64,000 bases of DNA from Hydrurus foetidus (Eukaryota): NCBI GenBank assembly GCA_900617105.1, contig UYFQ01000005.1:496001-560000 (forward strand). The letters are read 5' to 3'. Each line of letters starts with the position of its first letter. Within the stretch, counting starts at the first letter, position 1. The position numbers were made by a program, and so were the translations under genes. A model generated the notes under the pieces. It saw only the letters and a program-made list of their open reading frames with translations, did no database searches and had not been told where the DNA came from. This document shows positions 603 to 28,238 of the stretch, in pieces.

Positions 603-2714
603 CCATGAATGCTATTGAGCTAATAACAAAAGCAGTAACAGCCAATAAAATTCCAATAATCAGGGTTACTTTTGCAGCTGATGCAATCACACCAAGCCCA
701 AAAAGAATAATTGCTAAAGTATCGCTATTACGACCAACTATATCAATTGAACTATTAGGCAACACCCCCCCATTACTCCCCCCCTCAATCAAATACCCTC
801 CCGCCCCAGTCTGTGGATCAATCACGGTATACCCCGCCCCCGTCCACCCATCCTGGCTGATCGGTGCCTCATGAATCGTCACCTCGTACCCCGCATCCAA
901 CGCTTCTTGCACCTTGCCCTTGGTACTTTGGCTGTGCGCTGACAGCGCTGTGTTCACGATGCCGGGGTTGTTTTGGTACACCTCTTGGGTGATGGTATAG
1001 ATTTTCTGCCCCGCCTGCGCAGCAATCGCAATGGCTTTGATGGCCGATATGCCCTGCGGACAGTCAGGCAATGCCGGGTTCGGGGCCGTGCTGCTGCCCT
1101 GAACATTGCACTTCGCCGGGTCGTTAAAGAACCTCTCAGGAATGACCCCTTCCAGCGCACTCATGTACTGCCCCCTTAAGCGGTTGTAGCTGACCCACTT
1201 GTTTTTGTCGTTGTCCTTGGCCCAGGTCAGGTTCCTCACATGCCCAATATCCAGAACCACCCCTGGGAAGGTGACTTTGCGCACGACTCCCCAACTGCTG
1301 ATGGGGTTCGCCGCCGCATGAAACAACCCATAGGAGAGTCCTGGGACTTCTACCATCCCGGCTTGGTTTTGGCTCATCCGGTTGTGGCTCTCTGACGCTG
1401 CGAACCAGCTCCAAATCGTGGCGCTCAGGAGGTCGCCCGAGATTTGCTCGCCGGTAAGGCCGGTGACGTTATTGGCTTGCAGTTGGCTTTGCGTGGCGCT
1501 GAGCCGGTCTTTGAGCTGGGTGAGCTGCGCGGCACTGATGCCGCCTGCGCTGATCCCAATGGCGGTGGCCTGCCCCGCTGTGTTGGATTCTTCGCTGGTC
1601 AAGTCCCACTGGGTGGGGTCGTAGAGTTCGGTGAAGCCGCCGGTGCTGGGCAGGTCTGTGCCCATGGTGACGGCTTGGGCTGCGGTGGCGACGGCTTGGC
1701 CGTCCAGGTTGATTTGGGCTTTGAGGCGGATCAAGTAGCCGGGCAGGCTGCTGGGGAGTTCGCTGGGCTGGATGGGGCTGCCGTCGGCGTGGGGCTTGGG
1801 CAGGTAGCTGGCGATGAGGTCAGCATCGGCCTGGGTGGCGGGGATGTAGCTGAGGGTTAAGCGTTTGCCTGCCAGTTGGCTGGTCTTGGCGGTGTAGGTC
1901 AGCACAGGGGTGTCGCTGGCTTGGTCGTTGGCGCTGGCGTAGAGGCGGTAGGTGAATTGGTGTTGCAGGGCGCTGGGGATGGCGGTGCTCTCTTGCCCTT
2001 GCAGGATGGTTTTGTAGGGCAGTGTGCCGGCCAGCATCTCGTGGTTGCGCTGGGGGATGATCTTTTTACCGATGACGTCGCCGACGGTGCTACTGGCGCC
2101 TGTGGGGGTGCTGTTGATGTAGGTTTGCAGCCGGGTTTGGTAGGCGGTGAGTTGGGCTTGAATGGCGGTTTGGTTGAGATTTTGTACCCAGCCCTGGGCG
2201 GCGTTGACGGTGGCGCCTGTTTGGGCGGCGTTGAGCAAGGCGTTGGCGTCGAGGGGGACGTTGGTTTTCAGGTCCATGCCGGGGCTGTAGCTGTATTGCT
2301 TGTAGCTGGCGTCCAGGGGCACCCAGGCGTTCAGGGGGCCGTTGGGGTTGGTGTGTTGGCTGGGGGTGGCGTTGGGAAGGGCGTTTTGGGCTCCCCGGCT
2401 GGGTGTCCAGTTGACGTAGGCGTTGACCCAGATGTGCTCTAGGCGGATGGTGGTGATGCGTCCGGCGTCGGTGATGCCTCGGTTGGCGATGCCGCCTTGG
2501 CCTAGGATTTGTTGGGCGGCTTCGGGGGTGGCGGTGTCAAAGGCGTTGCCGCTCTTTTTATCCAAGGTGTCTTGGGCGCTTTGGATGGCGCCCCAGGTGG
2601 GGACGTAGCTGATGGTGTTGCGTACCCAATTGTGGATGGTGACGGGGTTGCGGCCGAGTTCTGTGGCTTTGGCTTGGAGGGCGGGGGTGATCTGGGTTTC
2701 GGGGGTGGGGGCAC
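603..2714 (-). pseudogene. Orphan/degenerate transglutaminase-like polymorphic toxin cassette; no signal peptide, 36-codon in-frame deletion in the core, C-terminus cut by IS4
   Basis: Near-identical to the 6484-9325 gene from TPETQITPALQAKATELG onward; GNAFDTA joins directly to TPEAAQQ; hydrophobic tail (TLAIILFGLGVIASAAKVTLIIGILLAVTAFVISSIAFMA) runs into the IS end. The ORF-track start at 2817 derives from a repeat. Confidence 0.85.
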
Positions 2715-2740
2715 CTCTCGCAGCCCGGCAGGGATGCGAT

Positions 2741-2802
2741 TTTGAATTAAATCGGCTTCTAGCGCTTGATCTGAATGCACAGGTAGCTATCAAATTCATA
2801 GT
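2741..2802 (+). repeat. Dispersed ~60-bp palindromic repeat (REP/MITE-like), core GCTATCAAATTCATAGT
   Basis: Similar elements at ~37015, ~55193 (reverse), ~56688 and ~63385. Confidence 0.7.
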
Positions 2803-2925
2803 TGTGCTTTGCTTCATTTGAATTGATCAAAACGCCACTCATTACGGTTTACACATAAGCGACCGCTTGTGGGTTGGTTCAAGATCAAACTCCGGCATTG
2901 TGTGGAAAGTTGCATTTCCCACCAA

Positions 2926-3408
2926 CTACTGTGAGACATTTCGAACACCGCACTTAGTAGCGAAATCACGAGCGGCACTCAACTCAATTGGCCCTAGTTG
3001 TACGGTATCAAAATGATCTCCATACCAATAAAATCGCAATCGCCAAGAATGCCCACCGCGATAACTCGCCAAGGTCGGTATTTGCTCAGTTAAATTAATG
3101 GGGAGTTTTATTTTTTTATATGGATATTGAAGCTCTAAAACATCAGAATTCTTCATGCATGAAATTGAATAAGCTGAATTTATTGAGTTTTCAAATCCAT
3201 ACCAAGCCCCTAAGGCACTCCCTATTAAGGTGTATAGAATAAGCGGTTTAGGGTATTTAGGAAAAAATACCGTCGATGATTCTAGTTGCCCCGTGAATCT
3301 TGCAGCAATCAGCAAGGCAAACCCTCCAGCGAATAATATTGTCCAAATCAACTCCTTCCACTGGTTAAATTTATCCCCTAAAACAAGGCTAATTAAATCT
3401 TGATTCAT
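2926..3408 (-). CDS. AT-rich membrane protein (160 aa, 2 predicted TM helices), putative immunity protein
   Basis: ATG at 3408 overlaps the TAA of an upstream toxin tail (TAATG); hydrophobic segments LIWTILFAGGFALLIAA and LILYTLIGSALGAWYGF; low GC. Confidence 0.75.
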   Translation of the reverse strand: MNQDLISLVLGDKFNQWKELIWTILFAGGFALLIAARFTGQLESSTVFFPKYPKPLILYTLIGSALGAWYGFENSINSAYSISCMKNSDVLELQYPYKKIKLPINLTEQIPTLASYRGGHSWRLRFYWYGDHFDTVQLGPIELSAARDFATKCGVRNVSQ

Positions 3409-3577
3409 TAGCAACGACCTTCTGTAGATCCACGTATTGCCCCATCTCCGAAAAACCCAATAAACCAAACCATGAGTAGTTTAGCAAGTCCTTCTGCACG
3501 CAGCCCTAACAGCAAAGCAACTACTTCAACCCCCACATAAAGAGCAATATTGCCTACACCACAAGTGCCATTAAGAG
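3408..3577 (-). pseudogene. Stranded 3' end (55 codons) of a toxin gene with a hydrophobic tip
   Basis: Manual translation LNGTCGVGNIALYVGVEVVALLLGLRAEGLAKLLMVWFIGFFGDGAIRGSTEGRC*, open from the IS4 left end to a stop that overlaps the next ATG. Confidence 0.7.
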
Positions 3578-3642
3578 CATCTCGTTATACACAACTCTCC
3601 CGAGCCTAAGGTATGCTGCGAATTTAATAGCATGAAACACAA

Positions 3643-4933
3643 GTGAACTGGGCAAAAAGGGAGTTTGAGACGATGGATTTGGGCGACAAGAGGCGCAACA
3701 AACGTGCAATCAAGATGATGGAAGGCTTCAGCGCGATGCCCACCGGTAGCATCCCCCAAGCCTGCGGGGACTGGGCCGACACCTTGGGGGCGTACCGCTT
3801 CTTCGACAACGATGCCTTCGAATGGACTGACATCTTGGAGCCCCACGTCCAAAGCAGCATGACCCGTATGGCGGCGCACCCCGTCGTGCTGTGCATCCAA
3901 GACACCACCGAACTCGACTTCAACGGCCAACAAGCTGCGGGACTGGGACCCCTGAGCTACGCCCCACAGCGCGGCATGTACCTGCACCCCACCTACGCCA
4001 TTTCTACCACCCGCGAACCGCTGGGCGTGCTGGACGCATGGATGTGGGCACGCAAGGCAAAAAATGCTGACGGCACACGCCCCGGAGTCAGCGAGAGTTT
4101 GCGCTGGACAGAAGGCTACGAACGCCTGGCCGAGATAGCCCCGCTGCTGCCCCTTACCCGACTGGTGTACTTGGCAGACCGCGAGGCCGACATCATGGAG
4201 TTAATGGTGCGTGCCCGCGAACTCCAAACCCCGGTGGACTGGCTGGTGCGCTCCAAACACAACCGCGCACTGGGGGCGGGAGCCAAACTGTGGCCCCAAG
4301 TAACGGCCACCCAAGCCCTGGGCACGATCCGTTTCACCATGCCTGCGCGACAGGGCAAAGCCACCCGCGAGGTAGAGCAACAGGTGTGGGCTAAAACCGT
4401 GCAACTGCGCGACGGCAAAGGCGGCTTTGTCACAGCCAGCTGCATCGTGGCACGCGAGATGACACCACCAGCGGGACAGACGGCCATCGAATGGCGACTG
4501 CTGACCAACCGGGACGTGGCCACACTGGCACAGGCCACCGAGATGATCGACTGGTACCGCGCCCGCTGGGAGATAGAGATGTTCTTCCATGTCCTCAAGA
4601 ACGGTTGCCACGTGGAGGCATTGCAGCTGGGCGACATTGACAGGATCGAGCGTGCGGTGGTGATGTACATGATCGTCGCGTGGCGTATTGCGCGGCTGAT
4701 GCGACTGGGGCGCAGTTGCCCGGAAATGGATGCGGCACTCATGTTTGAGGCGGATGAATGGAAGGCCGCCTACATCCTGAACAAAGAAAAGATACCGGAC
4801 AAGCCGCCCACCCTGAATGAAGTGGTTCGACTGGTCGCTCGTCTGGGTGGTTTCTTGGCACGCAAAGGGGATGGGGAGCCGGGTGTCAAAACCATCTGGC
4901 TGGGTATGCAGCGCATCATTGACTTCGCTGCTG
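3643..4933 (+). pseudogene. IS4/IS50-type DDE transposase, last ~15 codons displaced by the IS256 insertion
   Basis: LGDKRRNKR, IQDTTELDF, LADREAD, YRARWEIEMFFHVLK (YREK) and LGGFLARKGDGEPG motifs; native end GIRFSRELLAQGICV* resumes after 6273. Confidence 0.9.
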
Positions 4934-6265
4934 GAGGGTGTCCCGGATTTTGTGTAAACGGCGATTAAGTTAGACGCGCGGCATACGCTCGTCAAACTGA
5001 ATGGTAAATCGATTCAGGGCGGCCTTCCAATCCCGAATCGGCATCGTCCATTTCTGACTGATGTTGTTCAGTGCCAGATAGAACAATTTGAATACCGCGT
5101 CATCGGTTGGAAATGACCCGCGGGTCTTCGTGATTTTGCGTAGGCTCATATTCACCGATTCAATGGCATTGGTCGTGTAAATCACTTTGCGGATGTCTGG
5201 CGGGTAGTCAAAGAATGGCGTCAGGCGTGCCCAGTTGCGCCGCCAGGACTGACCAATCGGGGCGAATGATGCATCCCATTTGCCCTCAAATTCCGTCAGC
5301 CGCAGCAGGGCCTCGTCCTCAGTGGCGGCGCTGTAGATCATGCGCAAATCGGCGGCCACTTCCTTGCGCTGTTTCCAGCCCACGAAGTTCAGGCTGTGGC
5401 GCACCATGTGAACCAAACAGAGCTGCACAGCAGTCTTGGGGAACACGGCCTCAATCGCATCCGGCAAGCCCTTGAGGCCATCGACACAGGCAATGAAGAT
5501 GTCGGCCACACCACGGTTCTTCAACTCGGTCACCACTTGCAGCCAGAACTTGGCACCTTCCGTCTGGGCCATCCACAGGCCCAGCACCTCCTTGAGGCCG
5601 TCTAGGTTGACACCAATGGCCAGGTACAGGGCCTTGACCCGTACTGCGCCGTTGTCGCGCACCTTGACGTGAATGCAGTCCATGTAAACGATGGGGTACA
5701 GCGCGTCCAATGGACGAGCCTGCCAGGTTTTGACCTCATCCATGACGGCATCGGTCACCGAGGAGATTAGGGTGGGTGAAACTTCAGCGCCATACATTTC
5801 CTGCAGGTGGCTTTGAATTTCGCGCACTGTCATGCCCCGGGCGTAGAGCGACAGTATCTTGTCGTCAAAGCCGCTCCAGCGGGTCTGGTGCTTGGTGATG
5901 ATTTGGGGTTCGAACGTGCCCGCCCGGTCACGGGGGATTTCAATGGGCAGTTCACCAAAGTCGCCCTTGAGGGTCTTCTTGCTGCGTCCGTTGCGGGTGT
6001 TGCCTGCCTCGTTGGCCACCAATTGGTTCTTGCTGTGACCCAGGTGCTCTGTCAGCTCGGCCTGCAGTGCGCGTTCTACCAGGGCCTTGGTGAGTTGCTT
6101 GAGGATGCCGTTCTGGCCAATCAAATCTTCAGGCTTTTTGTAGTCTGCCAGCAGTGCGTCTATCAGTTCGGCGGGTAAGGGTTTCTGTTCTACGGTCATC
6201 ATTGCTCCATGCAAGACGGCAGTTTCCTGCCAAAAGACCGTTTACACAAAACTTCTTACACCCTC
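4934..6265 (-). mobile_element. IS256-family element, 1332 bp, 8-bp TSD CGCTGCTG
   Basis: Ends GAGGGTGT...TTTTGTGTAAACGG inverted; CGCTGCTG at 4926-4933 and 6266-6273; matches 49599-50930. Confidence 0.96.
4970..6214 (-). CDS. IS256-family (Mutator-type) transposase
   Basis: RNGRSKKTLK, IPRDRAGTFEP, CVDGLKG, QLCLVH, YTTNAIES motifs. Confidence 0.96.
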   Translation of the reverse strand: MHGAMMTVEQKPLPAELIDALLADYKKPEDLIGQNGILKQLTKALVERALQAELTEHLGHSKNQLVANEAGNTRNGRSKKTLKGDFGELPIEIPRDRAGTFEPQIITKHQTRWSGFDDKILSLYARGMTVREIQSHLQEMYGAEVSPTLISSVTDAVMDEVKTWQARPLDALYPIVYMDCIHVKVRDNGAVRVKALYLAIGVNLDGLKEVLGLWMAQTEGAKFWLQVVTELKNRGVADIFIACVDGLKGLPDAIEAVFPKTAVQLCLVHMVRHSLNFVGWKQRKEVAADLRMIYSAATEDEALLRLTEFEGKWDASFAPIGQSWRRNWARLTPFFDYPPDIRKVIYTTNAIESVNMSLRKITKTRGSFPTDDAVFKLFYLALNNISQKWTMPIRDWKAALNRFTIQFDERMPRV

Positions 6266-6327
6266 CGCTGCTGGGATCAGGTTCTCACGGGAGCTTCTGG
6301 CTCAGGGGATTTGTGTATAACGAGATG

Positions 6328-6483
6328 CGCTGAAGCCTTCCATCATCTTGATTGCACGTTTGTTGCGCCTCTTGTCGCCCAAATCCATCGTCTCAAACTC
6401 CCTTGTTGCCCAGTTCACTTGTATTTCATGCTATTAAATTCGCAGCATACCTTGGGCTCGGGAGAGTTGTGTATAACGAGATG
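6328..6483 (-). mobile_element. 156-bp left-end remnant of a third, slightly divergent IS4 copy
   Basis: Matches 447-602 with a few substitutions; abuts the right end of copy 2. Confidence 0.9.
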
Positions 6484-9325
6484 CGGTATACCCCGCCCCC
6501 GTCCACCCATCCTGACTCACCGGGGCCTCGTGAATCGTCACCTCATACCCCGCGTCCAGCGACTGCTGCACTTTGTCCTTGGTACTTTGGCTGTGCGCTG
6601 ACAGCGCTGTGTTAACGATGCCGGGATTGTTTTGGTACACCGCTGCCGTGATCGTATAGATTTTCTGCCCTGCGCTTGCCGCAATGGCAATGGCTTTGAT
6701 TGCCGATATGCCCTGCGGGCAGTCAGGCAGCGCCGGGTTGGGTGCCGTGCTACTGCCCTGGATGTTGCATTGCGCCGGGTCGTTAAAGAACCGCTCAGGA
6801 ATGGCCCCTTCCAGCGCACTCATGTACTGCCCCCTGAGCCGGTTGTACGCCACCCAGGTGGCGGGGTTGTTGTCTTTGCTCCAACTCAGGTTGCGGACAT
6901 GCCCAATGTCCATGTTCACCCCGGGGAAGGTGACTTTGCGCACGACTCCCCAGCTGTACACGGGGTTGGCCACGGCGTGGAAGAGTCCGTAAGAGAGTCC
7001 TGGCGTTTCAACCATGCCTGCCTGGTTTTGGCTGAGCTGGTTGTGGCTTTGTGCGGCGGCGAACCAGCTCCAGATGGTGGCGGTGAGCAGGTCGCCGCTG
7101 ATTTGCTCGCCGGTGAGTCCGGTGACGTTGCCCGCTTGCAGCTGCGTTTGTGCGCTTTGCAGTCGTGTTTGCAGGGTTTGCAGTTGGGTGCTGCTGATGC
7201 CGCCTGTGCTGATCCCAATGGCGGTGGCCTGCCCCGCTGTGTTGGATTCTTCACTGGTCAAGTCCCACTGGGTGGGGTCGTAGAGTTCGGTGAAGCCGCC
7301 GGTGCTGGGCAGGTCTGTGCCCATGGTGACGGCTTGGGCTGCGGTGGCGACGGCTTGGCCGTCCAGGTTGATTTGGGCTTTGAGGCGGATCAAGTAGCCG
7401 GGCAGGCTGCTGGGGAGTTCGCTGGGCTGGATGGGGCTGCCGTCGGCGTGGGGCTTGGGCAGGTAGCTGGCGATGAGGTCAGCATCGGCCTGGGTGGCGG
7501 GGATGTAGCTGAGGGTTAAGCGTTTGCCTGCCAGTTGGCTGGTCTTGGCGGTGTAGGTCAGCACAGGGGTGTCGCTGGCTTGGTCGTTGGCGCTGGCGTA
7601 GAGGCGGTAGGTGAATTGGTGTTGCAGGGCGCTGGGGATGGCGGTGCTCTCTTGCCCTTGCAGGATGGTTTTGTAGGGCAGTGTGCCGGCCAGCATCTCG
7701 TGGTTGCGCTGGGGGATGATCTTTTTACCGATGACGTCGCCGACGGTGCTACTGGCGCCTGTGGGGGTGCTGTTGATGTAGGTTTGCAGCCGGGTTTGGT
7801 AGGCGGTGAGTTGGGCTTGAATGGCGGTTTGGTTGAGATTTTGTACCCAGCCCTGGGCGGCGTTGACGGTGGCGCCTGTTTGGGCGGCGTTGAGCAAGGC
7901 GTTGGCGTCGAGGGGGACGTTGGTTTTCAGGTCCATGCCGGGGCTGTAGCTGTATTGCTTGTAGCTGGCGTCCAGGGGCACCCAGGCGTTCAGGGGGCCG
8001 TTGGGGTTGGTGTGTTGGCTGGTGCTGGCGTTTTGGCTGCCTCGGCTGGGTGTCCAGTTGACGTAGGCGTTGACCCAGATGTGCTCTAGGCGGATGGTGG
8101 TGATGCGTCCGGCATCGGTGATGCCTCGGTTGGCGATGCCGCCTTGGCCTAGGAGTTGTTGGGCGGCCTCGGGGGTGGTGACGCCGCCTACCCAGTTTTG
8201 TACTTGGGCTGCGGGCAGTTCGATGGTGCCGAATTGGTAGCGGGCGGGGATGCCTGCGGCGCGCAGGAGGGCAATCTCTAGGCTGGCGATGTCAAAGGCG
8301 TTGCCGCTCTTTTTGTCCAGGGTGTCTTGGGCGCTTTGGATGGCGCCCCAGGTGGGGACGTAGCTGATGGTGTTGCGTACCCAGTTGTGGATGGTGACGG
8401 GGTTGCGGCCGAGTTCTGTGGCTTTGGCTTGGAGGGCGGGGGTGATCTGGGTTTCGGGGGTTGATGCCAGATCGGCGGGGGTGGGAGTTTGGCTGGGTTC
8501 GGGGGGGATGTTGAATTGGATGCCGCCTCCTGCACCACCACTCACCTGAGCGAGTCTGATTTTTTGGTCAGCGTAGAGGTTTTGATGCCAAGCGGTCTTG
8601 GTTTCTGCGGGTGCTCGGGTGCTGGGGGTGGAGGTGCGCCAGGGGAGTTTTTTGGGGGGGACTTTGGCGGATTTGGCGGTGGCGCTGTCTTGTGCGGCTT
8701 GTGGCCCGGAGGGGGTGGGTTCTGCGCTTGCTGTTTTGAGGGCGGGGTATTGCTCGAAGAAGCGCGACAGGGTGGCGAGGTTCAGGTCGCTGGGGTTTTG
8801 CCGCCATGCGGTGGTGTGGCGGCTGAGTTGCTGGCTGCGCTCGCGCATGGCTTGGGCGGCTTGGTCGTGGCGGGCGAGGATTTCTGGGGAGACTCGTTTG
8901 TTGAGCAATTCGGCCCGGCTGGCTTCGAATTCGTTTTGCGCGGTGGCGCTGTCTTCGTCTATGCCGTCCAGGTAGCTTTGCAGGCGTTGCTGTTGCTGGC
9001 GCTTTTGTGTCTGGGTTTTGCCGGGGCGGGGTTGGCTTGCGGGGCTGGCATCGAGGTTGAGTTCGCGCACCAGTTCGTGGGCGAGTACCAAGCGGCGGCT
9101 GGTGCGGTCTGCGGTGCTGGCGTTGTCTTGGGCTTGGGCGGCTTTGCCGCGTTCTATGTCTTGCTGCATGGCGGCAAAGCGCTGCAACTGCGCTTGGGCG
9201 CTGGGGTTGAAGGCCGGTGTGCCTTTTTCTTGCGCCAACACACTTAATGGGGCCAGGGCGTTGCACAGCAGCACTGCTGCCAGCACGCGCGCGACCGGGC
9301 GCAGCACCGGGTGCCACGGGGTCAT
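6484..9325 (-). pseudogene. Secreted inactive-transglutaminase polymorphic toxin, truncated by IS4 at the conserved GWTGAGYT junction
   Basis: Signal peptide MTPWHPVLRPVARVLAAVLLCNALAPLSVLA-Q (ATG at 9325); GNAFDIASLEIALLRAAGIPARY, EHIWV and WVPLDAS motifs; ORF-track C-terminus SRYTQLSRA is IS sequence. Confidence 0.88.
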
Positions 9326-9569
9326 CGTGTTGTGAGGTGCTGATGGCGTTTGCAAATCGAGGGGCTTGGGGTTAATGTGGTATTTGCTTTGCCAGCTGCT
9401 CAAATTGAGGGGGAATCGGCTTCTTGTGTTTGCTCTGGCAGGAGGACTTGTCAAGTTTCACTCGGAATAATGATAAACCTAAAACCTACGCGGTTTTACT
9501 ATATAAATTTATAATAAACAATTTTAAATATTTATTGAATAAAAATTAATAAAATTTAATTAAAAATAC

Positions 9570-10169
9570 TCACCAACAACTCAACACCCATGTATTTGAA
9601 TATTTATAAAGTAAAATCATCAGCTCCTCATCCAAATAATTAATTTTATTACTTTCCGTAATTTCTATATAACAAAATATACATGCATACTGATTTATAT
9701 TTAAATTATCATAAACAAATCTAGAGCGATCGATTAAATTTTTTGCATAATTATCCAATGGACGATCAAAAAGTCCATCACCAAAAAAATCCCAAACATC
9801 TTCATTGCCTTTCTTATAGGGCATTAGCATTTGAATTGCCATCTCATGCAACCGTGATTTTTCAAAATTAATTTCCTGCAGTACTACTTTTAGAATTGCA
9901 GGAAGATAGTAAATAAATGCCTCTTTTGTTAAGTAGCTTCTTAACTCAGAGTATCCACAGCGATATAAATCATCAGCAGAAATTTCATTCCACGGGCGAT
10001 AATTCAAAATTGATATAATATTTTCAACAGACCAAGCATCACCACTTGCATACGATAAGCATGTATTTCGAGAAATAACCGGTTCAGAGGGAAAATTTTT
10101 ATTGATCATTAATATTAATTCATCAATAGACTTGTTCCGCGAAAAATATTTACTAGACACTTTAATCAC
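9570..10169 (-). CDS. AT-rich putative immunity protein (DUF6714-like), paralog of 10691-11320
   Basis: Overlaps the stop of the orphan toxin tip by 8 bp; W..I....LT.EAFIYYLPAIL and LNINQYACIFCYIEITE motifs are shared with the paralog. Confidence 0.75.
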   Translation of the reverse strand: MIKVSSKYFSRNKSIDELILMINKNFPSEPVISRNTCLSYASGDAWSVENIISILNYRPWNEISADDLYRCGYSELRSYLTKEAFIYYLPAILKVVLQEINFEKSRLHEMAIQMLMPYKKGNEDVWDFFGDGLFDRPLDNYAKNLIDRSRFVYDNLNINQYACIFCYIEITESNKINYLDEELMILLYKYSNTWVLSCW

Positions 10170-10509
10170 CTGAAAAACATTGGTGTACAGCTTTCTTTAG
10201 TGCATTGCAAGTCGTACAGGTATTTATTGCCTTTAGTTCCTTTTCTACTTCTCCCCAATGGGATTGATCCCCACCTTGAAAGCAAGTTTCCATTATCTCG
10301 ACTCTGGCGGCTATGCAGTCTTCTGCGATTTGAATTTTTACATCAACCTTGGCACAACTCTCGCCTTTGCTTTTTCCGCCTGCACGACTGTGTGGCTTAT
10401 TACAAATAGCACTTTTAGCATCTTGCAGGATCTTATGCTGCTCCAAAGTACATGAACCATAGGGCAGTGGGGGCGTACCGTAGGGCGGTGGTCAATTGAA
10501 CTGCGCTGG
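10162..10509 (-). pseudogene. Orphan Cys-rich toxin tip (Ntox16-like), with in-frame TGA in its upstream homology region
   Basis: PAQFN*PPPYGTPPLPYGSCTLEQHKILQ...CIAARVEIMETCFQGGDQSH aligns with PAQFNWPPAG...MCTAEQH...CIVARLLVMDTCFLGGDSGH of 11317-14721. Confidence 0.8.
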
Positions 10510-10690
10510 CGACGATTTGGAACTGGTCGCGACCCAGGAAGTTGCGGGCGACGGGGCGCAGCCAGATGAATCTCAAGATGGCATCTGACGCTCGGTTTTG
10601 AACATTACATGCATGATTTCGAGATCTGACCCTCGGCTTCTTCGGGAACATTGGGTGTGAGGTCAAGTTACCCCCAATGGGGATTGAGCC

Positions 10691-17250: not shown

Positions 17251-17253
17251 AAA

Positions 17254-20200: not shown

Positions 20201-20679
20201 AGGGTGGTTTTAAGGTCTGTGGCTCTTTGCGGGGTCAGGGTGGTTTGCGCGGATGTTTGCGGAGCTGCTGTACGTGACAAGGCGGCAGATGGGGGTTGCC
20301 GGACTGTCACGCTGGGCTTGGATGCTTCGGGGTGCAGGGTCTTGAGGAGGTCTGCGATCCGCTCTATGCGGCGCTGGGCCACTTCAGTATCGCTGGGCAC
20401 TAGGCTCGTTGTTTGTGGGATGGCTGCGGTGCTTTGGGTTGTTGTGCTTTTAGGATTCTCTTGCGCCAACACGCTCAAGGGGGCCAGGGCGTTGCACAGC
20501 AGCACTGCGGCCAGCACGCGCGCGACCGGGCGCCGCACGGGGTGCCACGGGGTCATCGTGTTGATGGGCTCATCGGACACCTGAGTTGACGCTCGAAGGG
20601 GGTTGTGGGGTTGAAGGGTTTGGCTTGACATAGGTGTGCTCCCGCGCTGCGCTGTTTGTTGTGGTGTTCGTTGTTTCAC
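17254..20679 (-). CDS. Secreted inactive-transglutaminase polymorphic toxin with an unassigned C-terminal domain (true start possibly ATG at 20556)
   Basis: Same signal peptide and core motifs (GNAFDTASL, EHVWV, WTPLDAS); GWTGQAYIATDPITGAGAYII junction; AT-rich tip HRGSFQAQG...RVDWVINAGGAFSN. Confidence 0.88.
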   Translation of the reverse strand: MKQRTPQQTAQRGSTPMSSQTLQPHNPLRASTQVSDEPINTMTPWHPVRRPVARVLAAVLLCNALAPLSVLAQENPKSTTTQSTAAIPQTTSLVPSDTEVAQRRIERIADLLKTLHPEASKPSVTVRQPPSAALSRTAAPQTSAQTTLTPQRATDLKTTLRGLLYDTQSAQSTITDEMHAARAQLQEIGRKGELSAQTVSELLTRHDAAQQQLSAKASQFSQLAATAAANPTDTNTYALALHMAQYPGAGAGKTHVPTDHNQLPWGSAKPNQRTPAQTKTAWFQNLYADQKIRLAQATTGTTIGGIQFNIPPEPTQAPTAADLSTSDETQLTPALQAKATELGNNPVTIHNWVRNNVQYLPTWGAIQSADYTLTARRGNAFDTASLEIALLRAAGIPARYQFGTVDIAAERVQNWLGGVTTPQAALNLLNQGGIAAIGVAQAGHITAIRMEHVWVNAYVNWTPSRGNKNANATQHVNPNGLLNAWTPLDASYKQYDYTPGLDLPAAVPMDANALQAAVQDGATVTANTVQGLNQANLQTQFTDYQTRLQTYVTATVGANATTADITGRQTIRPQNFSLLPGTLPYPITMAGNETQQIPDTLRWKISFKLYASDNDKATDTPSMTQSLRLSQIGNKRLAATYVAATPADQQVIDLYVTNNASALPLYLIRQKLQFKLDDTLLAEVPAQRMGDTQWWNYILQGPNFGPIEEDFKRESAVGDAIVFGVDASGLSLDDVANRAAQVNPDTALENLHHMALGYWSRANVSDAMMAKTANVQAYRLPSVGLFTSPLTVQYSWGIPRQGQYSSYAVDIRRMISAVTGMSDPGATVEYMKRIGIKNSFLEGRIFEELLGLAPGNGISAVSVISAASSVGVAIWKIDKDNLENYLGATEISYAMRQQIGDAVTSGLVVLAPEDVVKFSGWTGQAYIATDPITGAGAYIIDGSNGSELVLCEPKTQPLVQSISQRILTQMVIRLAMLLIAEAGLAASATVVPVLSPAIFQVMTAIGMTFLTFKANAASSSPCPSDKCHRGSFQAQGSDMPSQKKRLPNQWTISVNWAQATPLTKSEALGLVSILKAQVGLYNNKALTLREPWFLKLENYIMSVSPSGLCAPDGGSYPKPNFSGRDGYRVDWVINAGGAFSN

Positions 20680-22399
20680 TTGTCCACCGTGAAGGTGGTG
20701 GTGGCGAGCGTTTGGGCACTCCCGGCGACGGTGGCGATCAGCTCTATCTTGAGCTTGTTACCGGCTGCGCCCTGCACCACCCAGCTGGCACTGGCCGTGC
20801 TGGTTTGCCCGGTGGCGATGTCGGCGCTTTGGTTGATGTCTTGCACCAGTGTTCCCCCTGTGCTGGTGTTGGTGATGTGCAGTTTGAGCGGGATGGCGGT
20901 GGCGCTGGCCCCGGTGTTGCCCACGCTGCGGTTCAGGGCCACGGTGACTCCCGCTTTGGCGTGGGTGGGGCTGGCGCTGAGGGTGGCGCTGAGCTTGGTG
21001 GGGCCGACCAGAAGCTGGAACTGGTCACGGGCGAGCAGTTGGGTGTCGGTGTAGGCCCAGCTCAGCCCCAGGTTGTAGGCGGCGGTGACGCTGATGTCGA
21101 TGGTGTCACCCACCTGCCCTGCGGCCACCCAGTTGCTGGTGCGTTGGCTGCTTTGTCCGCTGGTGAGGGTGAAGGTTTCGGTGGCGGTGAGCACGGTGCT
21201 GCCGGTGCGGCGGTTGACCCAGTTGGTGGTCACAGGCAAGGCGGTGAAGCTGCCGATGCCATTGGCGGCGAGGGTGCAGTTGTTGGTGAGGTTGCGGCTG
21301 CCCACCAGGCTGCTGCCGAGCTGGACTTGGCGGGTGCTTTGGCTGTTGACGCTGACATCCACGCTGGTGGCCAAACAAGCCCGCTGCTGGCAGAGTTGGC
21401 GGGCCGCAGCTTGCTCGGCCCAGGCCAGGGCTTGCAGTGCTTGGCTGGTGTCGGTGTTGGCGCTGGCGATGCCACGCAGGTAGTTGGCGGCGACGAGGTA
21501 TTCCACCAGGCCTTCTGCGTAGCGGCCTTGGGTGGTGAATTGTTTGCCCAAATCGGCTTGGTAGCTGGCGTTGCTGAGGGCGGTGGTGTCGGCACTGCCT
21601 GTGGGCTTGAGGGCGACCAAGGCTGCGCTGGCGTTGCCGATGAGGGTTGCGACGCTGCTGAGGGTGAAGCTGTGGGTGACGGTTTGGCTCACTGCGGTGG
21701 CCCCTGGGGCGCTGGCCTGCACTTGCACCGGTACGCTGTAGCTGCCGGCTTGCCCGCTGCTGACTTGCAAGATGAGGTTGCTGGTTTGGCCGGGTTGCAG
21801 GCTGATGGCCCAGTTCACCAGGGTGCTGCCGTTGGCTTGTGGGCTGATGTCGGCCGCACTGGCGACACTGGGTTGCGACGCCAACAGGTTCACGCCTGCG
21901 GGCAACAGTGCTTGCACGTTGAGGCTGGCGACTTGGCTGCCGGTGTTAGCGAGCGCGGTGCTGAGGGTTTGCGGCGCACCGGGAACGGGGCTGTTGCCAG
22001 GGGCGATGCCTGCCGGGGTGGTGGCTGTGGTGGTGCTGTTGATGACGGCATTGGGTGTCGCCAAGTAGGCCAAGCTGCGCACCACGGTGTCGGCCAGCAG
22101 GCTGTCGTTGGCGGCGTTGGGTTGGGCCATGAGGGTGGCGAGGTCAAACGCGAAGGTCAGCGCGTGGCCGGTGCCCAGGGTTTTGCTGATGATGGCGGGG
22201 ATGCCTCCGGCGAACATGGCTTGAACGGTGCCGCCGCTGGTGACGCTGTTCGCACCTGTGCTCAAGCTGAAGCGGGTGGGGGTGCCCAAGGTTTTAAGTC
22301 CGGCGGCGGGGTACAGGCTGCCACTCAAGCTGGCGATGCTGTTGGAGGGCAAGGCGGCGGTTTGTTGCACCACGCCCATGTAGGGGTGCAGGTACATGG
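20459..22399. repeat. ~1.94-kb direct repeat, copy 1
   Basis: Matches 14501-16441. Confidence 0.95.
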
Positions 22400-25300
22400 G
22401 CTCTAGCCATTCGGGGGTGCCGTCTACGACGATGCCTGCCCCGCGCTGCGCGGCTTCTCGCATTTCTTTGGGGTCGTACACGGTGAACTTGAGCGAGGCT
22501 CCGCCGCTCACCCAAAAGATGTTGTAGTTGCCGCAGCGCAGCTCTTGGCGGAACTCTGCGGCGCTGGTGACGACTTTGGCGGGAACCGCTAACTGGGCGA
22601 AGTAGTTGCGCAGGGCTTGCGCTTTGGTTTCATCGCAGGCGGGGCTTTGGTTGGCACCGTCATCGCTGTAAATGCAGCTGACCAGCATGAGCACGCGGGG
22701 GTTGCTGGTGGTGCTGATTTGGGTCGTGATTTGCACAGGCGGGGTGGCCGGGGCCGTCACGCTGAAGCTGGTGGTGGCCAACAAGGTGGTGCTGGCCGTG
22801 GCGGTGCCAGTGGTCGTGGTGCTGGCACTCAAGCTGGCGGTATAGCGGCTGCCCGCAGGGCCGGGGGGTGTCCAGCTTTGGTTGCTGCTGAAACTGCCAT
22901 TGGCCGACAAACTGGCAGGCACGGCCCACTGGGCCGCGACGGTGCTGGTGCCCGCTGGGGAAACAGCCAGCGTGGCGGTGGTAGCCACAGCTTGGCTGTT
23001 GGGGTTGCTCAGACGGTAGAGCAGTTGCACAGCAGCGCCGCTTGCCACCGCGCTGGGGCTGGCGGACAGGGTGCCTGTCAAGGGCTGAAGAGGAACCACT
23101 GGCGCACCGCGCAAGGTGAAGGGCGCTTGGGCCAGGGGAAGTTCGTTGCTTGTGGGCAACTGCACGGTGGCTGTGGCGATCAAAGCCAAGCCATCGGTGC
23201 CAGCAGCAGGCCAATTCCAGCTCAAGCTTTGTGAAGCTCCCACGGGCCATGCGGCAACGGTTTGGGTGAAGGTGCCGAGTACCGCGCCTGTGGCGGGGTT
23301 GAGCACGCGCACACGCACCGTAGCGTTGCTGACGGTGGCATTGCCGCTGTTGGTGGCGGTCAATTGCAGGGTCAAGTTTTGCCCGACTGTCACGGGGTTG
23401 GGGCTGGCTTGCAATTGACCGAGCAGGCCGATACCGGTTTGGTCACTGCCGATCACGCTGAATGCGGCGCTGCCCTGGGCCACAGTAGCACCTTGGGCGT
23501 TGCGCACCACAAACTGCGCTTGGTAAGTGCCAGGGCTCAGGGTGTTGGCGGCGAGGCTGTAGCTGAAGCTGCGTTGCCCTTGGGCGGCGAGTTGAGCGAG
23601 GCTTTCGACCTTGCTGAACACCACTGCACCAGTGCTGTTGGTGACAGTGGTCGTCGCGCTGAGGTTGTCTTGCGGGGTGTTGGTGGTCAGGTTGGTTGCG
23701 AGCGAAGTCACTTGCACGGTTTGCGCTGCTGTATAGCTCACACGGTCGGTACGAATGTTGCCGCTCAGGGCCGCGCTTTGGCTGGCTTGCACAGTGAAGT
23801 TGGCTGTGGCAGTGCCGTAAACAATACCTGCGGGGGTAATGAGTTCAGCCTTGATTTGGTAAGCACCAGCCAATACACCAGAAGTCGCCCAAAGGGCGGT
23901 GGCTTGCCCGCTGACACCCGACGCTACGTTGAAGCTCACACCCAGAGGTAAGGCATCAACCGTCTTTCCGGTGGAATCCAACACGGTAAACCGCACCAAA
24001 GGATCACGGGCAAAGCTGCCTGCATTGGTGACAGTGGCGGTGAAGGTGGCTTGCTCGGCTTCGGTGTAAGTGGGTTTGCTCGTGGCGACGGCGAGACCAA
24101 GATTGACCGCTATAGCTGACACATCGGCCACCAGCAGGTTGTTGCTGCGGTCAAAGTCAGCGATGCTGGTTTTACCGGTGCCATCGTCATCGGCGACGAT
24201 CCACAGTGTGCCGTTAGGTATCGCCACATTCAAGCCGCCTGGAAGTGCGAATGTGATGTCTCTATAGTCACCGGGTGCTATGACTTGTTCAAGTAGAGCG
24301 GTACCCAGCAAAACTGAAGACCGTGGTGCACTGCTGTTGGGATTGGCGTTGTAAAAAGCAATTTTTGTTGCAGCAGGTATTTTGTCGGAACCACCATTAC
24401 CAAGGCGAATGGTAAGGACGGAACCCACTGAACTTTGATCGGCTATTCGCAGATAGGACACGGTCAAATCAGGTACCGCACGAGGATCTGCGTCGAGACG
24501 CTTATTAAGACGAAAGGTGTTTTGGGCTTTCCAATTTGGAATTTGAATTTTTGGAACTGTCAAATCATCATTGATATTGGTAATGCTGTAGTCGTATTGA
24601 TTCCACAGACTGCGAGTAGAAACCCAGGCATTGTTGATGTCTTGATATACATAAATCCCATGTTGAGCGCCGCCAAAAGTACCGTCACCTGGAACGATCA
24701 AATTTGCATGACCATCACCACTTGCATCCACAACCAAAGGGTATTCAGCACCAGTGGATGAACTGCTTGTTTTTTCAAACAGCACAGCGCCTGTGGCACC
24801 GTCATACACCCGCAACTTATCTTGATCGCGGTAAATTACCTCCACTTTTCCATCACCATCAAAGTCAAATGCGGTTGAGCCAGTATTGGCAGACCCATCT
24901 TTGATTGGCGAGATCCACGCTACGGATCCATCAGAACGGATGACGGTGTAATTCCATATGCTTGCCACACCGATATCAGGCAAGCCATCACCATCAAAAT
25001 CAGCGATCGTTGCCGCCCCCCCTGCACCACCATCAGCCAACGAAACGGGCCCCCAAATCGTCTGCCCCTCATTGCTGACCAACCACACTTGGCCATGTGC
25101 AACCTGCACCAACTCAGGCACACCATCGTTATTAAAGTCAGCGAAAGGCATAGACCAAAGAGACGAACTGTCTGGGCCACGCCACATGAATGTGCCATTG
25201 CTTGCGAAAACAGCAGGGCCACAAATAATTTGCAACCCAGGCATGGTTTGAGAAATTTTTGCAGCATTAGATGCATCTTCCGGATAACACCGTCCTGAAG

Positions 25301-28238
25301 TACTCAAATCATGCAATAGAACACCTGTTGCAGAGTAAATGTAAGAGCCCAGCAAAATTTCTGGCGATCCATCTTCATCAATATCTGCGACTGATACCCA
25401 ATGAGCAAGAGGGCCATTCGCCTGCCATTTAACCTGTCCAGTGGGTGTCATCACTACAGGGCCACCGTTGTGTTTCACCGCAATGATTTCAGGAATACCA
25501 TCTTTGTCTAAATCAGCAAGTGCCAAACCTGTTTGGGTATGAACACCACCAAACACTGAAGGGGGCACCCGCAAGACCTCTTGCCCAGTCTTACCATCTA
25601 TGGCAACAAGCGATGCAGGCGCAAAATAATTTGAGCCATCGTAGGCTGAAAAAATAATGCGCGGCGTATCAGCTTCATCAATTTTCCCATCCCCATTGGT
25701 ATCGTGAATGCGCCCAACTACTGGGGACATCATGACTTGCCCAGCTGTCCAAGCGAATTTGAGCACAGGTTCAAATGCAGATCGAAGCGGTATGACGAGG
25801 GCATCCTGACCACTTGAGTGAGTGTTGTTGGCCTCATTCGCCTCCAGCACCTGCTGGTTTGCATCCACCATCACATGAATGGGGGCATCCCTAAAGTCAC
25901 GCTGCCCTGCAACAGAAACAGATACTGTGGTCGTCTGGTTTGGTGCGAGCGAACTGGTCAGCACAGCTTGCCCCAAGACCGTATCGCTGATGGCATCAAA
26001 CTGGCCATTCCGGTTGACATCGACGAAAGCAACTAAGCCAACATTGGCAGGAGCAAGCTGCTTGCCAATGTTCGCGACCTGCACACTCACTGCCCCCGTA
26101 AGTTTCAATGTCTGTGGATCAGTGAAAGCCGTAGCACGCTGAACAGCGACAACGGTCAAGTCTGGCAATAAAACATCAACCTTGGGTGGACGCAATCGAA
26201 TTTGACCTACATCCAGCGTTTGTAAAGGTGCAATTGCATATTGCAAAGCGGTACGTTGATAGCCACTGGCCATTGCTTCAACTTGAACATTTGCACCATC
26301 TATTCCACCTTGACTAAAGCGTCCACTGCTTCCCGTTTGTACGGTTAGCACCGAACCATTCTTGAGCGAAATCGTCAGTGTTGCCCCAGTTATGGGCTGA
26401 TTGGTACCCGCATCCAACACAACACCACTCAACATGCCCATATTGGCATTAAGCGGGGTTTGATTGGCAGCGTAGAGCTTGGGCGAGAAGTCCAGCGCGG
26501 TAGCACGCAAATTACTGCACAACACTTGCGTATTCGCTTGCACCGTATCGAAGCCTGCCATGCTGGCCGTCATAACTACAGCGCCACTGACCAAGCCGCT
26601 GATTTGGTAGTGACCTGTAGCGTCCGTCGTTGTGCTCGCGGTGTTCGCACCCGAGACCACAATACCAACACCAGCAATAGGTTGCTGGCTTGAGGCAGAG
26701 AAGACAGTTCCTTGTAATAAACACGCATTGCTGCTGGCTACGCCCGAAGCCAAGGATGGCGAAAAGTTGGCAACCTGCCCTGCTTGCACGGCAACATTGC
26801 CTGTGGCGCTTAAGTAACCAGCTTTGCTGGCTGTTAGGTTGAGGTTACCAACCGTGACATTGGCAATCAGGTAGCTGCCATCCCCAGCAGTCACTGCGCT
26901 GAGATTTTGGCCCTCGATCATGATCGTGACACCTGCTAGCGGTGCATTGCTGCTTGATGTTCTGGCAATCCCATTGACTGTGGCGGTGCTGATGTTGGAC
27001 TGCACCAGCATTTGTACAACGCCAACATCCGTCACTTGACCGGCGGTTAACACCAAACTCAACTTGAGCGTGCTGTAGCCTGTTGCGACAGCCTGGATTT
27101 GGTAGGCACCAGGGCTGACCCCCTGCATAGAGACCCCGCCAGCGCTATCACTGGTTGCGCCAAGGACGCCAGCACCCGTACCACTGAAAAGCACACCTGG
27201 AATCGCTGTACCTGTACGTGCATCAACAAACTTGAGCTTAAGACCAGATTGATTGGGGTTAAGTGGAATTTGCCCAGTCAAGGCCAGCGCACGCAAAGCT
27301 ACGGCAGTTACGTAAGCATCCCCCTGCCATGACCCATCCGCTATTTGCTGACCCAGAAGAAAACTACCCACATCACTGGCAACAGTCGCATTTTGACCAC
27401 CGTAGGGATGCACAGACTCATACGCAATAGCGGTGACTGCCACATCAGACAACCAATTGCCTTGTGCATTGCGCTGGGCCAGCAAATACCCTGCGGCCTT
27501 GCTGGCAATGGCTGCAGCGGTGGCGTTACTGGCTGCGCTATCTTGTAAACCACGCAACACGGTGGCGGTACTTACCGTGTCGCTGATACCAGCAGTTGTA
27601 AAGCTGCCATCAGCCTTCTGGGCTGTTTGCAACCAAGCCAAGAGTCGAGATTGTTCGGGTGCGCTAAGGCTCGTTAATTCCGTTGCCAATGCAGAACCCG
27701 TGTCCAGCGCATTTGAAATACCAAAACCTTCGTAGGCAGCATAGCCACCATCGCCGCCACGGCGTGGACTGACATCATTCAGTAACGACAAGCCAAGTTG
27801 CTGTTGAAGATACTTTTGACATGCCACCGTTTGGGTCGCACTGTCTGCGGTGTTTTGCAAAGCGGCAACCAAAGCCGCTACGGGGCTGCTGTTACCTGCC
27901 AGTTTGAGCAATGTTTTAGCGGTTTCGCAACGGGCTTGCTGAGGCGATGCAACCGCAGAGGGCGTTGCAAGTTGCCCATTGGATTGAACTTGGGACTGGA
28001 GCCATGCCAAACCTCGGCTCAGGTCAGCAGGCGCACCGGACACATACGCCATAGCGAACATGGCAAGGGTGAAAAGCAAGAGATTGCGAACATTTCGCCC
28101 AACAGACCTGACTTGCGCCAAGAAATACCGTGCGATGTGTGCCGTGCGTACCGCTGACGAATGCGAAAAACGTGCGCAAGCACTTTGTACTTTACCAACC
28201 TGCATATGGCCTCCCGACCCATTGCCAGCCTTTGACAA
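20676..28238 (-). CDS. Giant secreted multidomain protein: QW alpha/alpha-barrel repeats, ~4 carboxypeptidase-regulatory-like repeats, CARDB, FG-GAP/VCBS propeller, Ig-like repeats (start uncertain)
   Basis: Hydrophobic leader LLLFTLAMFAMAYVSG-A; WLQTAQKADGSF, YLLAQRNAQGNW, FLLGQQIADGSW; repeated G.V....T..PI.G..I......T...G.Y....ASK.GY; LPDLTV...EANEANN; DLDKDGIPEI, DIDEDGSPEI, DFNNDGVPEL, DFDGDGLPDI, DFDGDGKVEV. Confidence 0.88.
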   Translation of the reverse strand: MSKAGNGSGGHMQVGKVQSACARFSHSSAVRTAHIARYFLAQVRSVGRNVRNLLLFTLAMFAMAYVSGAPADLSRGLAWLQSQVQSNGQLATPSAVASPQQARCETAKTLLKLAGNSSPVAALVAALQNTADSATQTVACQKYLQQQLGLSLLNDVSPRRGGDGGYAAYEGFGISNALDTGSALATELTSLSAPEQSRLLAWLQTAQKADGSFTTAGISDTVSTATVLRGLQDSAASNATAAAIASKAAGYLLAQRNAQGNWLSDVAVTAIAYESVHPYGGQNATVASDVGSFLLGQQIADGSWQGDAYVTAVALRALALTGQIPLNPNQSGLKLKFVDARTGTAIPGVLFSGTGAGVLGATSDSAGGVSMQGVSPGAYQIQAVATGYSTLKLSLVLTAGQVTDVGVVQMLVQSNISTATVNGIARTSSSNAPLAGVTIMIEGQNLSAVTAGDGSYLIANVTVGNLNLTASKAGYLSATGNVAVQAGQVANFSPSLASGVASSNACLLQGTVFSASSQQPIAGVGIVVSGANTASTTTDATGHYQISGLVSGAVVMTASMAGFDTVQANTQVLCSNLRATALDFSPKLYAANQTPLNANMGMLSGVVLDAGTNQPITGATLTISLKNGSVLTVQTGSSGRFSQGGIDGANVQVEAMASGYQRTALQYAIAPLQTLDVGQIRLRPPKVDVLLPDLTVVAVQRATAFTDPQTLKLTGAVSVQVANIGKQLAPANVGLVAFVDVNRNGQFDAISDTVLGQAVLTSSLAPNQTTTVSVSVAGQRDFRDAPIHVMVDANQQVLEANEANNTHSSGQDALVIPLRSAFEPVLKFAWTAGQVMMSPVVGRIHDTNGDGKIDEADTPRIIFSAYDGSNYFAPASLVAIDGKTGQEVLRVPPSVFGGVHTQTGLALADLDKDGIPEIIAVKHNGGPVVMTPTGQVKWQANGPLAHWVSVADIDEDGSPEILLGSYIYSATGVLLHDLSTSGRCYPEDASNAAKISQTMPGLQIICGPAVFASNGTFMWRGPDSSSLWSMPFADFNNDGVPELVQVAHGQVWLVSNEGQTIWGPVSLADGGAGGAATIADFDGDGLPDIGVASIWNYTVIRSDGSVAWISPIKDGSANTGSTAFDFDGDGKVEVIYRDQDKLRVYDGATGAVLFEKTSSSSTGAEYPLVVDASGDGHANLIVPGDGTFGGAQHGIYVYQDINNAWVSTRSLWNQYDYSITNINDDLTVPKIQIPNWKAQNTFRLNKRLDADPRAVPDLTVSYLRIADQSSVGSVLTIRLGNGGSDKIPAATKIAFYNANPNSSAPRSSVLLGTALLEQVIAPGDYRDITFALPGGLNVAIPNGTLWIVADDDGTGKTSIADFDRSNNLLVADVSAIAVNLGLAVATSKPTYTEAEQATFTATVTNAGSFARDPLVRFTVLDSTGKTVDALPLGVSFNVASGVSGQATALWATSGVLAGAYQIKAELITPAGIVYGTATANFTVQASQSAALSGNIRTDRVSYTAAQTVQVTSLATNLTTNTPQDNLSATTTVTNSTGAVVFSKVESLAQLAAQGQRSFSYSLAANTLSPGTYQAQFVVRNAQGATVAQGSAAFSVIGSDQTGIGLLGQLQASPNPVTVGQNLTLQLTATNSGNATVSNATVRVRVLNPATGAVLGTFTQTVAAWPVGASQSLSWNWPAAGTDGLALIATATVQLPTSNELPLAQAPFTLRGAPVVPLQPLTGTLSASPSAVASGAAVQLLYRLSNPNSQAVATTATLAVSPAGTSTVAAQWAVPASLSANGSFSSNQSWTPPGPAGSRYTASLSASTTTTGTATASTTLLATTSFSVTAPATPPVQITTQISTTSNPRVLMLVSCIYSDDGANQSPACDETKAQALRNYFAQLAVPAKVVTSAAEFRQELRCGNYNIFWVSGGASLKFTVYDPKEMREAAQRGAGIVVDGTPEWLEPMYLHPYMGVVQQTAALPSNSIASLSGSLYPAAGLKTLGTPTRFSLSTGANSVTSGGTVQAMFAGGIPAIISKTLGTGHALTFAFDLATLMAQPNAANDSLLADTVVRSLAYLATPNAVINSTTTATTPAGIAPGNSPVPGAPQTLSTALANTGSQVASLNVQALLPAGVNLLASQPSVASAADISPQANGSTLVNWAISLQPGQTSNLILQVSSGQAGSYSVPVQVQASAPGATAVSQTVTHSFTLSSVATLIGNASAALVALKPTGSADTTALSNASYQADLGKQFTTQGRYAEGLVEYLVAANYLRGIASANTDTSQALQALAWAEQAAARQLCQQRACLATSVDVSVNSQSTRQVQLGSSLVGSRNLTNNCTLAANGIGSFTALPVTTNWVNRRTGSTVLTATETFTLTSGQSSQRTSNWVAAGQVGDTIDISVTAAYNLGLSWAYTDTQLLARDQFQLLVGPTKLSATLSASPTHAKAGVTVALNRSVGNTGASATAIPLKLHITNTSTGGTLVQDINQSADIATGQTSTASASWVVQGAAGNKLKIELIATVAGSAQTLATTTFTVDK

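Follow-up and report, generated by a model that had tools for sequence, protein, structure and literature searches.

Polymorphic toxins such as those of the CDI, Rhs and MafB systems combine a constant body with a variable tip, an adjacent immunity gene and orphan cassettes. For many of the Sec-exported ones, including those with RHS repeats, we know of no route of exit from the producer or of entry into the target. Toxins with an inactive transglutaminase domain have been noted computationally by Zhang 2012 (PMC3482391). In the sections of that paper drawn on here, the domain follows a signal peptide, is always succeeded by RHS repeats and is listed under Sec/T2SS export, with surface anchoring by peptide binding as a proposal; the same sections give no immunity protein for the toxin domain Ntox16 and list no neighbour gene. 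The umbrella (Umb) toxins of Streptomyces are, according to the excerpted parts of PMC11062931, not found outside Actinobacteria.

The locus described here lies in a window of 64,000 nucleotides (contig UYFQ01000005.1 of an assembly filed under Hydrurus foetidus). It occupies 571..28238 on the minus strand (Table 1) and runs from a giant secreted protein, G, through T1 with I1, a transglutaminase relic, a duplicate of the G 3' end and T1 start, T2 with I2 and an orphan tip with I3 to T3, behind which lie the nested IS elements, the remnant of a tip together with X, and T4. The initial annotation had proposed a single co-directional array in which G overlaps the first of four paralogous genes with a transglutaminase-like core. 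All locus genes indeed share the minus strand, the G stop codon shares nucleotides with the GTG of T1, and the four carriers T1-T4 match PF01841 in Pfam (37-48% identity to T1; for T3 and T4 see Table 1). A constant body, variable tips, tip-matched genes, orphan cassettes and a two-way linkage of G and T are all evident in the sequences. Because the first four are present together, the locus, judged by every sequence-level hallmark, is a polymorphic toxin system, and a real one of which half has been decayed by IS elements. A Burkholderiales host is suggested by the nearest named relatives of T1, which belong to Verminephrobacter, Ramlibacter, Polaromonas and Comamonas.

Table 1. Features of the locus in window coordinates.
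Feature	Position	Strand	Remark
G, giant secreted scaffold	20676..28238	-	2520 aa from TTG
T1, intact carrier-toxin	17254..20679	-	signal peptide to 125-aa tip
I1, predicted immunity gene for T1	16606..17250	-	GC 0.29
Degenerate transglutaminase-core gene relic	16442..16550	-	at duplication junction
Recent duplicate of 20459-22399	14501..16441	-	3' ~590 codons of G and T1 start
T2, intact carrier-toxin	11317..14721	-	Cys945, hydrophobic hairpin, Ntox16 tip
I2, predicted immunity gene	10691..11320	-	overlaps T2 stop by 4 nt; GC 0.48
Orphan Ntox16 tip	10162..10521	-	43% identical to T2 tip
I3, predicted immunity gene	9570..10169	-	DUF6714 E 7.6e-8; GC 0.31
T3, tipless carrier with signal peptide	6485..9454	-	cut before junction by IS end
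Nested IS block	3577..6484		IS50-like, IS256, second IS50-like left end
Last 54 codons of multi-membrane-helix tip	3412..3576	-	in front of X
X, predicted membrane immunity gene	2926..3408	-	homolog follows related L027 tip (E 2e-5); GC 0.39
T4, 5'-truncated carrier cassette	604..2754	-	85% identical to T3
IS50-like element	1..603	-	runs off window edge

The window shares constant body, variable tips, adjacent genes and orphans with CDI, Rhs and MafB. In contrast to CDI, Pfam and NCBIfam searches of G and T1-T4 found no CdiB beta-barrel and no TPS or haemagglutinin domains, and no such gene recurs as a neighbour; in contrast to CDI, Rhs and MafB, the partner is a secreted modular scaffold, and no RHS or T6SS parts occur in the window. 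This agrees with the absences listed in the initial annotation: an NCBIfam scan of 41 chosen ORFs gave no CdiB, T6SS or T1SS family, and tblastn with six queries, those for RHS included, found no RHS and likewise no Gsp or exosortase genes in the window. The toxins of Zhang 2012, as presented in the sections drawn on, resemble the carriers in signal peptide, dead transglutaminase and variable C-terminal toxin, and the RHS-bearing members of the present family (7 of 81 complete tips) fit that description. However, the family is mostly RHS-less, with no RHS in T1-T4 (Figure 5D or Additional file 1 of that paper may list some such proteins), its body exceeds the Pfam domain by ~650 aa, and a partner gene encoding a toroid is nearly always adjacent. 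The RHS-less form and the toroid-bearing partner are likely new relative to the known inactive-transglutaminase toxins.

As an analogy, the closest working one is the Umb particle, which in the excerpted parts of PMC11062931 is likewise a multi-protein toxin, exported by Sec/Tat, with a dead protease fold for binding, exchangeable lectin targeting domains and promiscuous subunit pairing. The two have no domains in common, though: Pfam finds no ALF repeats, trypsin fold or UmbB in G or T, and the present system has its dead enzyme on the toxin chain and diderm hosts. Bacterial teneurin-like proteins, in the excerpted parts of PMC13018210, are also Sec-exported, surface-anchored polymorphic toxins that come with immunity genes but lack an evident apparatus for injection, and G relatives likewise carry TTR-like and NHL domains; the teneurin-like proteins differ in being a single chain with a YD shell, with neither transglutaminase body nor toroid partner. 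The parts consulted of PMC10318531, PMC13274458 and PMC8416519 do not describe the present system. In the literature searched, which covered few subscription papers, Zhang 2012 was the only source on inactive-transglutaminase toxins and Ntox16, no description was found of G, the RHS-less form or the hairpin discussed below, and nothing on DUF6714, DUF5953 or DUF6310. For the widespread bacterial family to which the locus belongs, neither the partner nor the export route nor the processing step appears to have been described.

The carriers share a body of ~940 aa consisting of signal peptide and catalytically dead transglutaminase. T1 begins with a long signal peptide and a helical domain, followed by the dead transglutaminase and a conserved body up to the junction at aa ~930-945; past the junction come Cys951, a hydrophobic hairpin, an A-N-A site (aa 1014-1016) and the tip (17257-17631), which belongs to an unnamed family. 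The ~450 further conserved residues after the transglutaminase core end in DP.TG.G.Y.I..GG.NGG. The nucleophile motif of T1 reads GNAFD at aa 378, with His and Asp kept, and the same replacement of the catalytic Cys by Ala, with retention of His and Asp, holds for the window carriers in general, which bears out their earlier designation as inactive. Across relatives, none of 74 aligned cores has the catalytic Cys (Ala in 63, Ser in 10, Asp in 1), with His and Asp each retained in 73. The ten carriers with Ser at this position keep both His and Asp and might be active. The AlphaFold2 model of the T1 body is confident (pLDDT 81, pTM 0.78), and only transglutaminase-like domains matched its fold (best 3isr_A, Z 13.4, rmsd 4.3, 159 residues aligned) in a search that barely probed the body outside the transglutaminase part. 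For the T1 tip (pLDDT 81 from a five-sequence alignment) there was no fold match above Z 3.6 and no match in Pfam or PDB sequences. The Ntox16 tip of T2 spans aa 1037-1119 and contains nine Cys (Pfam E 3.5e-11).

Two details of the initial annotation held only in part. Of the three copies described as full-length with a signal peptide, T1 and T2 are intact, whereas T3 has the signal peptide but is severed by an IS50-like end at 6484 directly after GWTGAGY. It therefore lacks the DP.TG junction, which was overstated as common to all four paralogs. T4 is missing its 5' third, has an in-frame deletion of 36 codons in the transglutaminase core, and its membrane-type tip is interrupted by the IS at 603.

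Duplication, not mentioned in the initial annotation, has also shaped the array. The two copies of the 1941-bp segment differ at 11 positions; the duplicate yields an ORF (14718-16544) without signal peptide and supplies the 5' end of T2. Contig depth at the duplicate, read from sequencing runs that may be the source of the assembly, is ~94 against 52-60 on single-copy parts (~1.7-fold), so the segment is truly present twice; an assembly artefact is ruled out by this depth together with the 11 differences. Duplication of the G 3' end plus T recurs elsewhere, with a C-terminal G fragment after the immunity gene in L002:3420-5306, where it additionally precedes another T, and in L031:6527-7190. 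Within the IS block, IS256 (4934-6265) splits an IS50-like element (3577-4925 and 6266-6327), and a further IS50-like copy is represented by its left end alone, 158 bp at 6327-6484. The IS256 copies at 4934-6265 and 49599-50930 are identical, and contig depth suggests ~ten copies each of IS256 and the IS50-like element in the source. Scans of promoters and terminators gave no excess over shuffles. Elsewhere in the window, among housekeeping genes, 38911-40663 and 46788-49382 hold an ATPase whose partner is unannotated, together with genes for a TPR glycosyltransferase-like protein and an AAA ATPase.

At the level of the family, T has relatives in 3,514 clusters at E<=1e-30 (50% library) and occurs in 18 of 401 sampled genomes of one order. 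A genome scan with T gave 556 stretches, the best 80 of which yielded 77 loci; these were retrieved by T patterns alone, and their counts are partly dependent (L049/L060, L004/L035 and L010/L019 overlap or share a genome). Just as the C-termini of the window carriers are unrelated to one another, the 81 complete tips at these 77 loci, from the best 80 of 556 stretches, differ: 46 are all-membrane, 28 soluble and 7 RHS-caged. Invariant C-termini among homologs, named in the initial annotation as a refuting observation, are thus not what the family shows. Named tips in relatives include DUF6310, NlpC/P60, NucA/NucB, a Tse2-like ADP-ribosyltransferase and RHS cages, with one weak match to Tox-ART-HYD1; most tips, that of T1 included, have no Pfam name. 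A large tip family without a name, marked by a single membrane helix and an RHYT motif (L047, L057, L059, L069 and many of P0173-P0253) is weakly Tox-ART-HYD1-like, and its partners are HEAT-repeat or small Cys-bearing proteins.

Tip class predicts partner class at the 77 loci: a membrane partner gene follows 34 of 42 membrane tips and a soluble one 28 of 34 soluble or RHS tips (Fisher p 4e-8), with five tips lacking a scored downstream gene and the downstream genes chosen automatically, some wrongly. The sole NlpC/P60 tip (L072) has no membrane helix and its partner is signal-bearing and lipoprotein-like. The coupled small genes of the window are usually AT-rich, as had been described (GC in Table 1), below the 0.55-0.63 of the carrier bodies, and partner GC is the lower in 72 of 76 cases among relatives. 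Pairs of the same tip and partner families recur. The window pairs Ntox16 with DUF6714 two times, L023 and L058 each combine DUF6310 and DUF5953, I1-like genes accompany the T1 tip, and the tip remnant with X is matched by the L027 pair. Among 32 pairs of similar tips, the partners were BLAST-similar in six and without detectable similarity in 26.

I1 has neither signal peptide nor membrane helix; in L002 the same tip family is followed by a related gene (BLAST E 1e-4), and I1 also aligns with its counterparts in L001 and L046. I2 matches DUF6714 weakly (E 0.066) and is similar to I3 (E 7e-5). Iterative HMM searching of 5160 small ORFs, started from I1 and from I2/I3, yielded no further relatives. 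The orphan tips reported in the initial annotation are present: the Ntox16 copy has an in-frame stop near 10494, close to its 5' end, and the remnant in front of X is homologous to tips of L027, L045, P0107 and P0120 (E 4e-7 to 2e-6). Of the 64 loci in which a tip is complete, 18 carry at least two tips and 14 contain cassettes truncated at the 5' end. Spare I1-family genes that lack a tip (L001:14184-14900, L003:14330-14827) are likely orphan immunity genes. Taken from sequence, it is highly probable that the tips are toxins neutralised by the product of the downstream gene.

Past the junction, T1, T2 and related carriers have in turn a Cys, a pair of hydrophobic helices, an AxA c-region like that of a signal peptide, and a Cys-rich domain. 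Cys number is even in all 37 representative soluble tips and odd on each side of the hairpin in 32 of them; in a held-out set the even parity recurs in 33 of 40 soluble tips. Because the parity holds, held-out tips included, the compartment in which the tips fold is very likely oxidising. Among 40 soluble tips, 36 had an AxA (the junction was found in 95 of 122 proteins). Behind the hairpin, 18 of 21 representatives carry it, where shuffled sequences give 6.6 +/- 2.0 and the membrane tips 12 of 55. AxA was rejected as a trait of soluble tips in general, as only 13 of the 40 held-out tips carried it against 10.3 +/- 2.6. After a post hoc split, it was present in 9 of 16 stapled held-out tips versus 4 of 24 others (p 0.015); the large single-helix RHYT class has neither AxA nor staple. 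The stapled subclass is likely nicked and would then remain tethered by a disulfide like an A-B toxin.

G has an alternative ATG start at 28205 with a GGAGG site. It begins with a signal peptide, an alpha/alpha toroid (aa ~70-330), four CarboxypepD/TTR-like repeats and CARDB, followed by a Bap1-like FG-GAP beta-propeller (aa ~815-1260), an MG2/Ig-like block (aa ~1380-1720) and a variable C-terminal part. The propeller matches the Bap1 structure 6mlt_A (E 4.6e-40). In Vibrio cholerae this propeller binds exopolysaccharide (PDB 6MLT; bioRxiv 10.64898/2026.08.03.742583, in the parts drawn on here); in overall match, Bap1 resembles only one exchangeable module of G. Among 38 full-length G relatives, toroid and TTR-like stalk are present in up to 36 and the MG2/Ig block in up to 37, while the FG-GAP propeller is common to about 15. 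Elsewhere the middle of G is exchanged for NHL propellers, a lectin-like domain or a second toroid (domain scan of 20 of the 38). The exchangeable head, here the Bap1-like propeller, has roughly an even chance of binding surface glycans. In a distant branch, minimal partners of 430-510 aa consist of toroid, Ig and C-terminal tail and directly precede T-RHS toxins. A ~7,000-aa G relative lies before a 3,513-aa T-RHS toxin (L084-L085, G115:C12).

The neighbourhood survey proposed in the initial annotation found G and the carriers together: G is directly upstream (within 1.5 kb, same strand) in 47 of 54 informative loci, a further 23 being too short upstream to inform. One of the other informative loci has a divergent G and six have no G nearby; among these six, G was found elsewhere in three of four genomes checked, and G004 had no G match. 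In the reverse direction, the G toroid was matched 14 times in 11 of the 401 genomes (four of these genomes were already among the loci, leaving 9 new matches in 7), and for all 14 matches a T match lay downstream on the same strand, 1.2-21 kb away as compared by eye. At threshold, the toroid match is absent in 7 of the 18 T-carrying genomes, two of which show a weak match when cut out. The linkage of the two suggests with high probability that G and T work together. The toroid is the likely T-binding module because it is the only G module kept in the minimal partners, and binding of T by G, most likely through this N-terminal toroid, is rather more probable than its absence. Strict co-evolution of G and T as cognate pairs was rejected, with Mantel r of only 0.15 and 0.19. 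Since the distances correlate so weakly, binding would, if real, be promiscuous, which one G with several carriers, as in the window, would also require. In Undibacterium, a choice-of-anchor A/pAdhesive_15 gene lies between G and T (L014:8713-9657, L026, L029, L037, L042) and could encode a third subunit.

The idea that Sec-exported toxins are displayed by the giant partner gains support beyond the initial annotation, as relatives have sorting tails, exosortases and gsp genes. IPTL-CTERM scores above cut-off in 4 of 45 G tails, and 10 of 45 are tail-like by a looser rule; five minimal partners have sorting-type tails by eye, two of them scoring just below the IPTL-CTERM cut-off. The window G shows no C-terminal sorting tail in the IPTL-CTERM test. 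Exosortase-signature genes occur near minimal partners in L079, L080 and L081, where an XrtM-like exosortase and a ~200-aa membrane gene stand beside minimal G and T-RHS. The XrtM family has been described near YD-repeat genes and has no substrate known to us; minimal G is a candidate substrate. A further minimal G (L078:12008-13537) ends, by eye, in a dockerin-like repeat and not a sorting tail. Genes for gspD/F/G or ExeA/GspB are present in 8 of the 77 loci, and gspG in 18 of 18 T genomes versus 265 of 383 others (p 0.0025, genome size and kinship ignored). The reading that we favour from these data is export by Sec and T2SS followed by display at the surface.

These observations can be joined in a model to which we give even weight: an antibacterial polymorphic toxin system made of two proteins, where the carriers would be kept on the cell surface by G and directed against neighbouring cells. 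G and T would be exported by Sec, acquire their fold and disulfides in the periplasm, and then pass the outer membrane through type II secretion. An exosortase tail would tether G to the surface in some relatives, and other means would do so for the window copy; as a whole this route seems slightly favoured. The toroid of G would then capture carriers at the surface, and its exchangeable head would direct them to glycans. More tentatively, and somewhat short of even, the hydrophobic tip helices may end in an inner membrane, where all-membrane tips would form pores, and in the stapled subclass (T1, T2) signal peptidase may nick after the hairpin, the toxin staying disulfide-tethered until reduced. 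New tips would be gained by recombination of downstream cassettes into the constant body. That all this amounts to an unrecognised Gram-negative delivery class, with a surface-tethered, glycan-aiming scaffold, T2SS-exported pseudo-transglutaminase carriers and stapled-hairpin nicking, is rather doubtful at present; its cargo would comprise pore-formers, RHS cages and A-B style enzymes.

Alternatively, T could act alone as a secreted bacteriocin-like toxin, with G a co-regulated biofilm adhesin that does not bind it. The match of the G propeller to a biofilm adhesin, the weakly congruent G and T trees, the several T genes without an adjacent G, and the single window G serving three carriers with unrelated tips would all fit. 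A free adhesin should, however, sometimes be found elsewhere, whereas the independent toroid matches all stand in front of T, and the minimal partners amount to little beyond toroid, one Ig and anchor, without an adhesin head. Independence of the two proteins is unlikely on these grounds. That the C-termini are anchors, self-recognition tags or effectors against eukaryotic grazers or hosts is very improbable: unnamed membrane segments do make up 46 of the 81 tips and 92 of 139 held-out ones, and the T1 tip has no family or fold match, but nuclease, ADP-ribosyltransferase-like and peptidoglycan-hydrolase tips come with compartment-matched partner genes.

A different fate of the tip is raised by its helices, which are very hydrophobic (median best 19-residue Kyte-Doolittle 2.7) and should halt Sec transfer in the producer, a difficulty for simple Sec export. 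T might stay in the inner membrane of the producer and make up, together with G, a sensor at the surface; this would set off a tip that signals or kills its own cell and that the downstream protein restrains. The acidic residues before helix 1 (34 K/R vs 94 D/E) fit an outside location, and the excerpted parts of PMC13622651 describe a Sec-secreted Ig/propeller sensor beside a transglutaminase gene in oral actinobacteria. Moreover, I1-I3 and 24 of 28 soluble partners have no signal peptide, implying cytoplasmic targets, while a cut by signal peptidase leaves the tip periplasmic; this conflict of topology, together with the hydrophobicity, keeps retention in the producer alive. Nevertheless, the positive-inside test lends no support, as the loop that joins the helices has no excess of positive charge (15 K/R vs 27 D/E), RHS-cage NucA/NucB and NlpC/P60 versions lack a membrane anchor, and no signalling neighbours are conserved. 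Orphan cassettes and spare immunity genes such as L001:14184 are marks of intercellular conflict. Based on this comparison, retention is improbable and the surface-held, neighbour-directed toxin is preferred.

The family provides a partner gene that can be named and candidates for both the export route and the processing site, and these are testable in culturable Comamonas, Ramlibacter, Pelomonas or Undibacterium strains. Likely roles can moreover be assigned to DUF6714 as the missing immunity protein of Ntox16, to DUF5953 and to several unnamed tip families.
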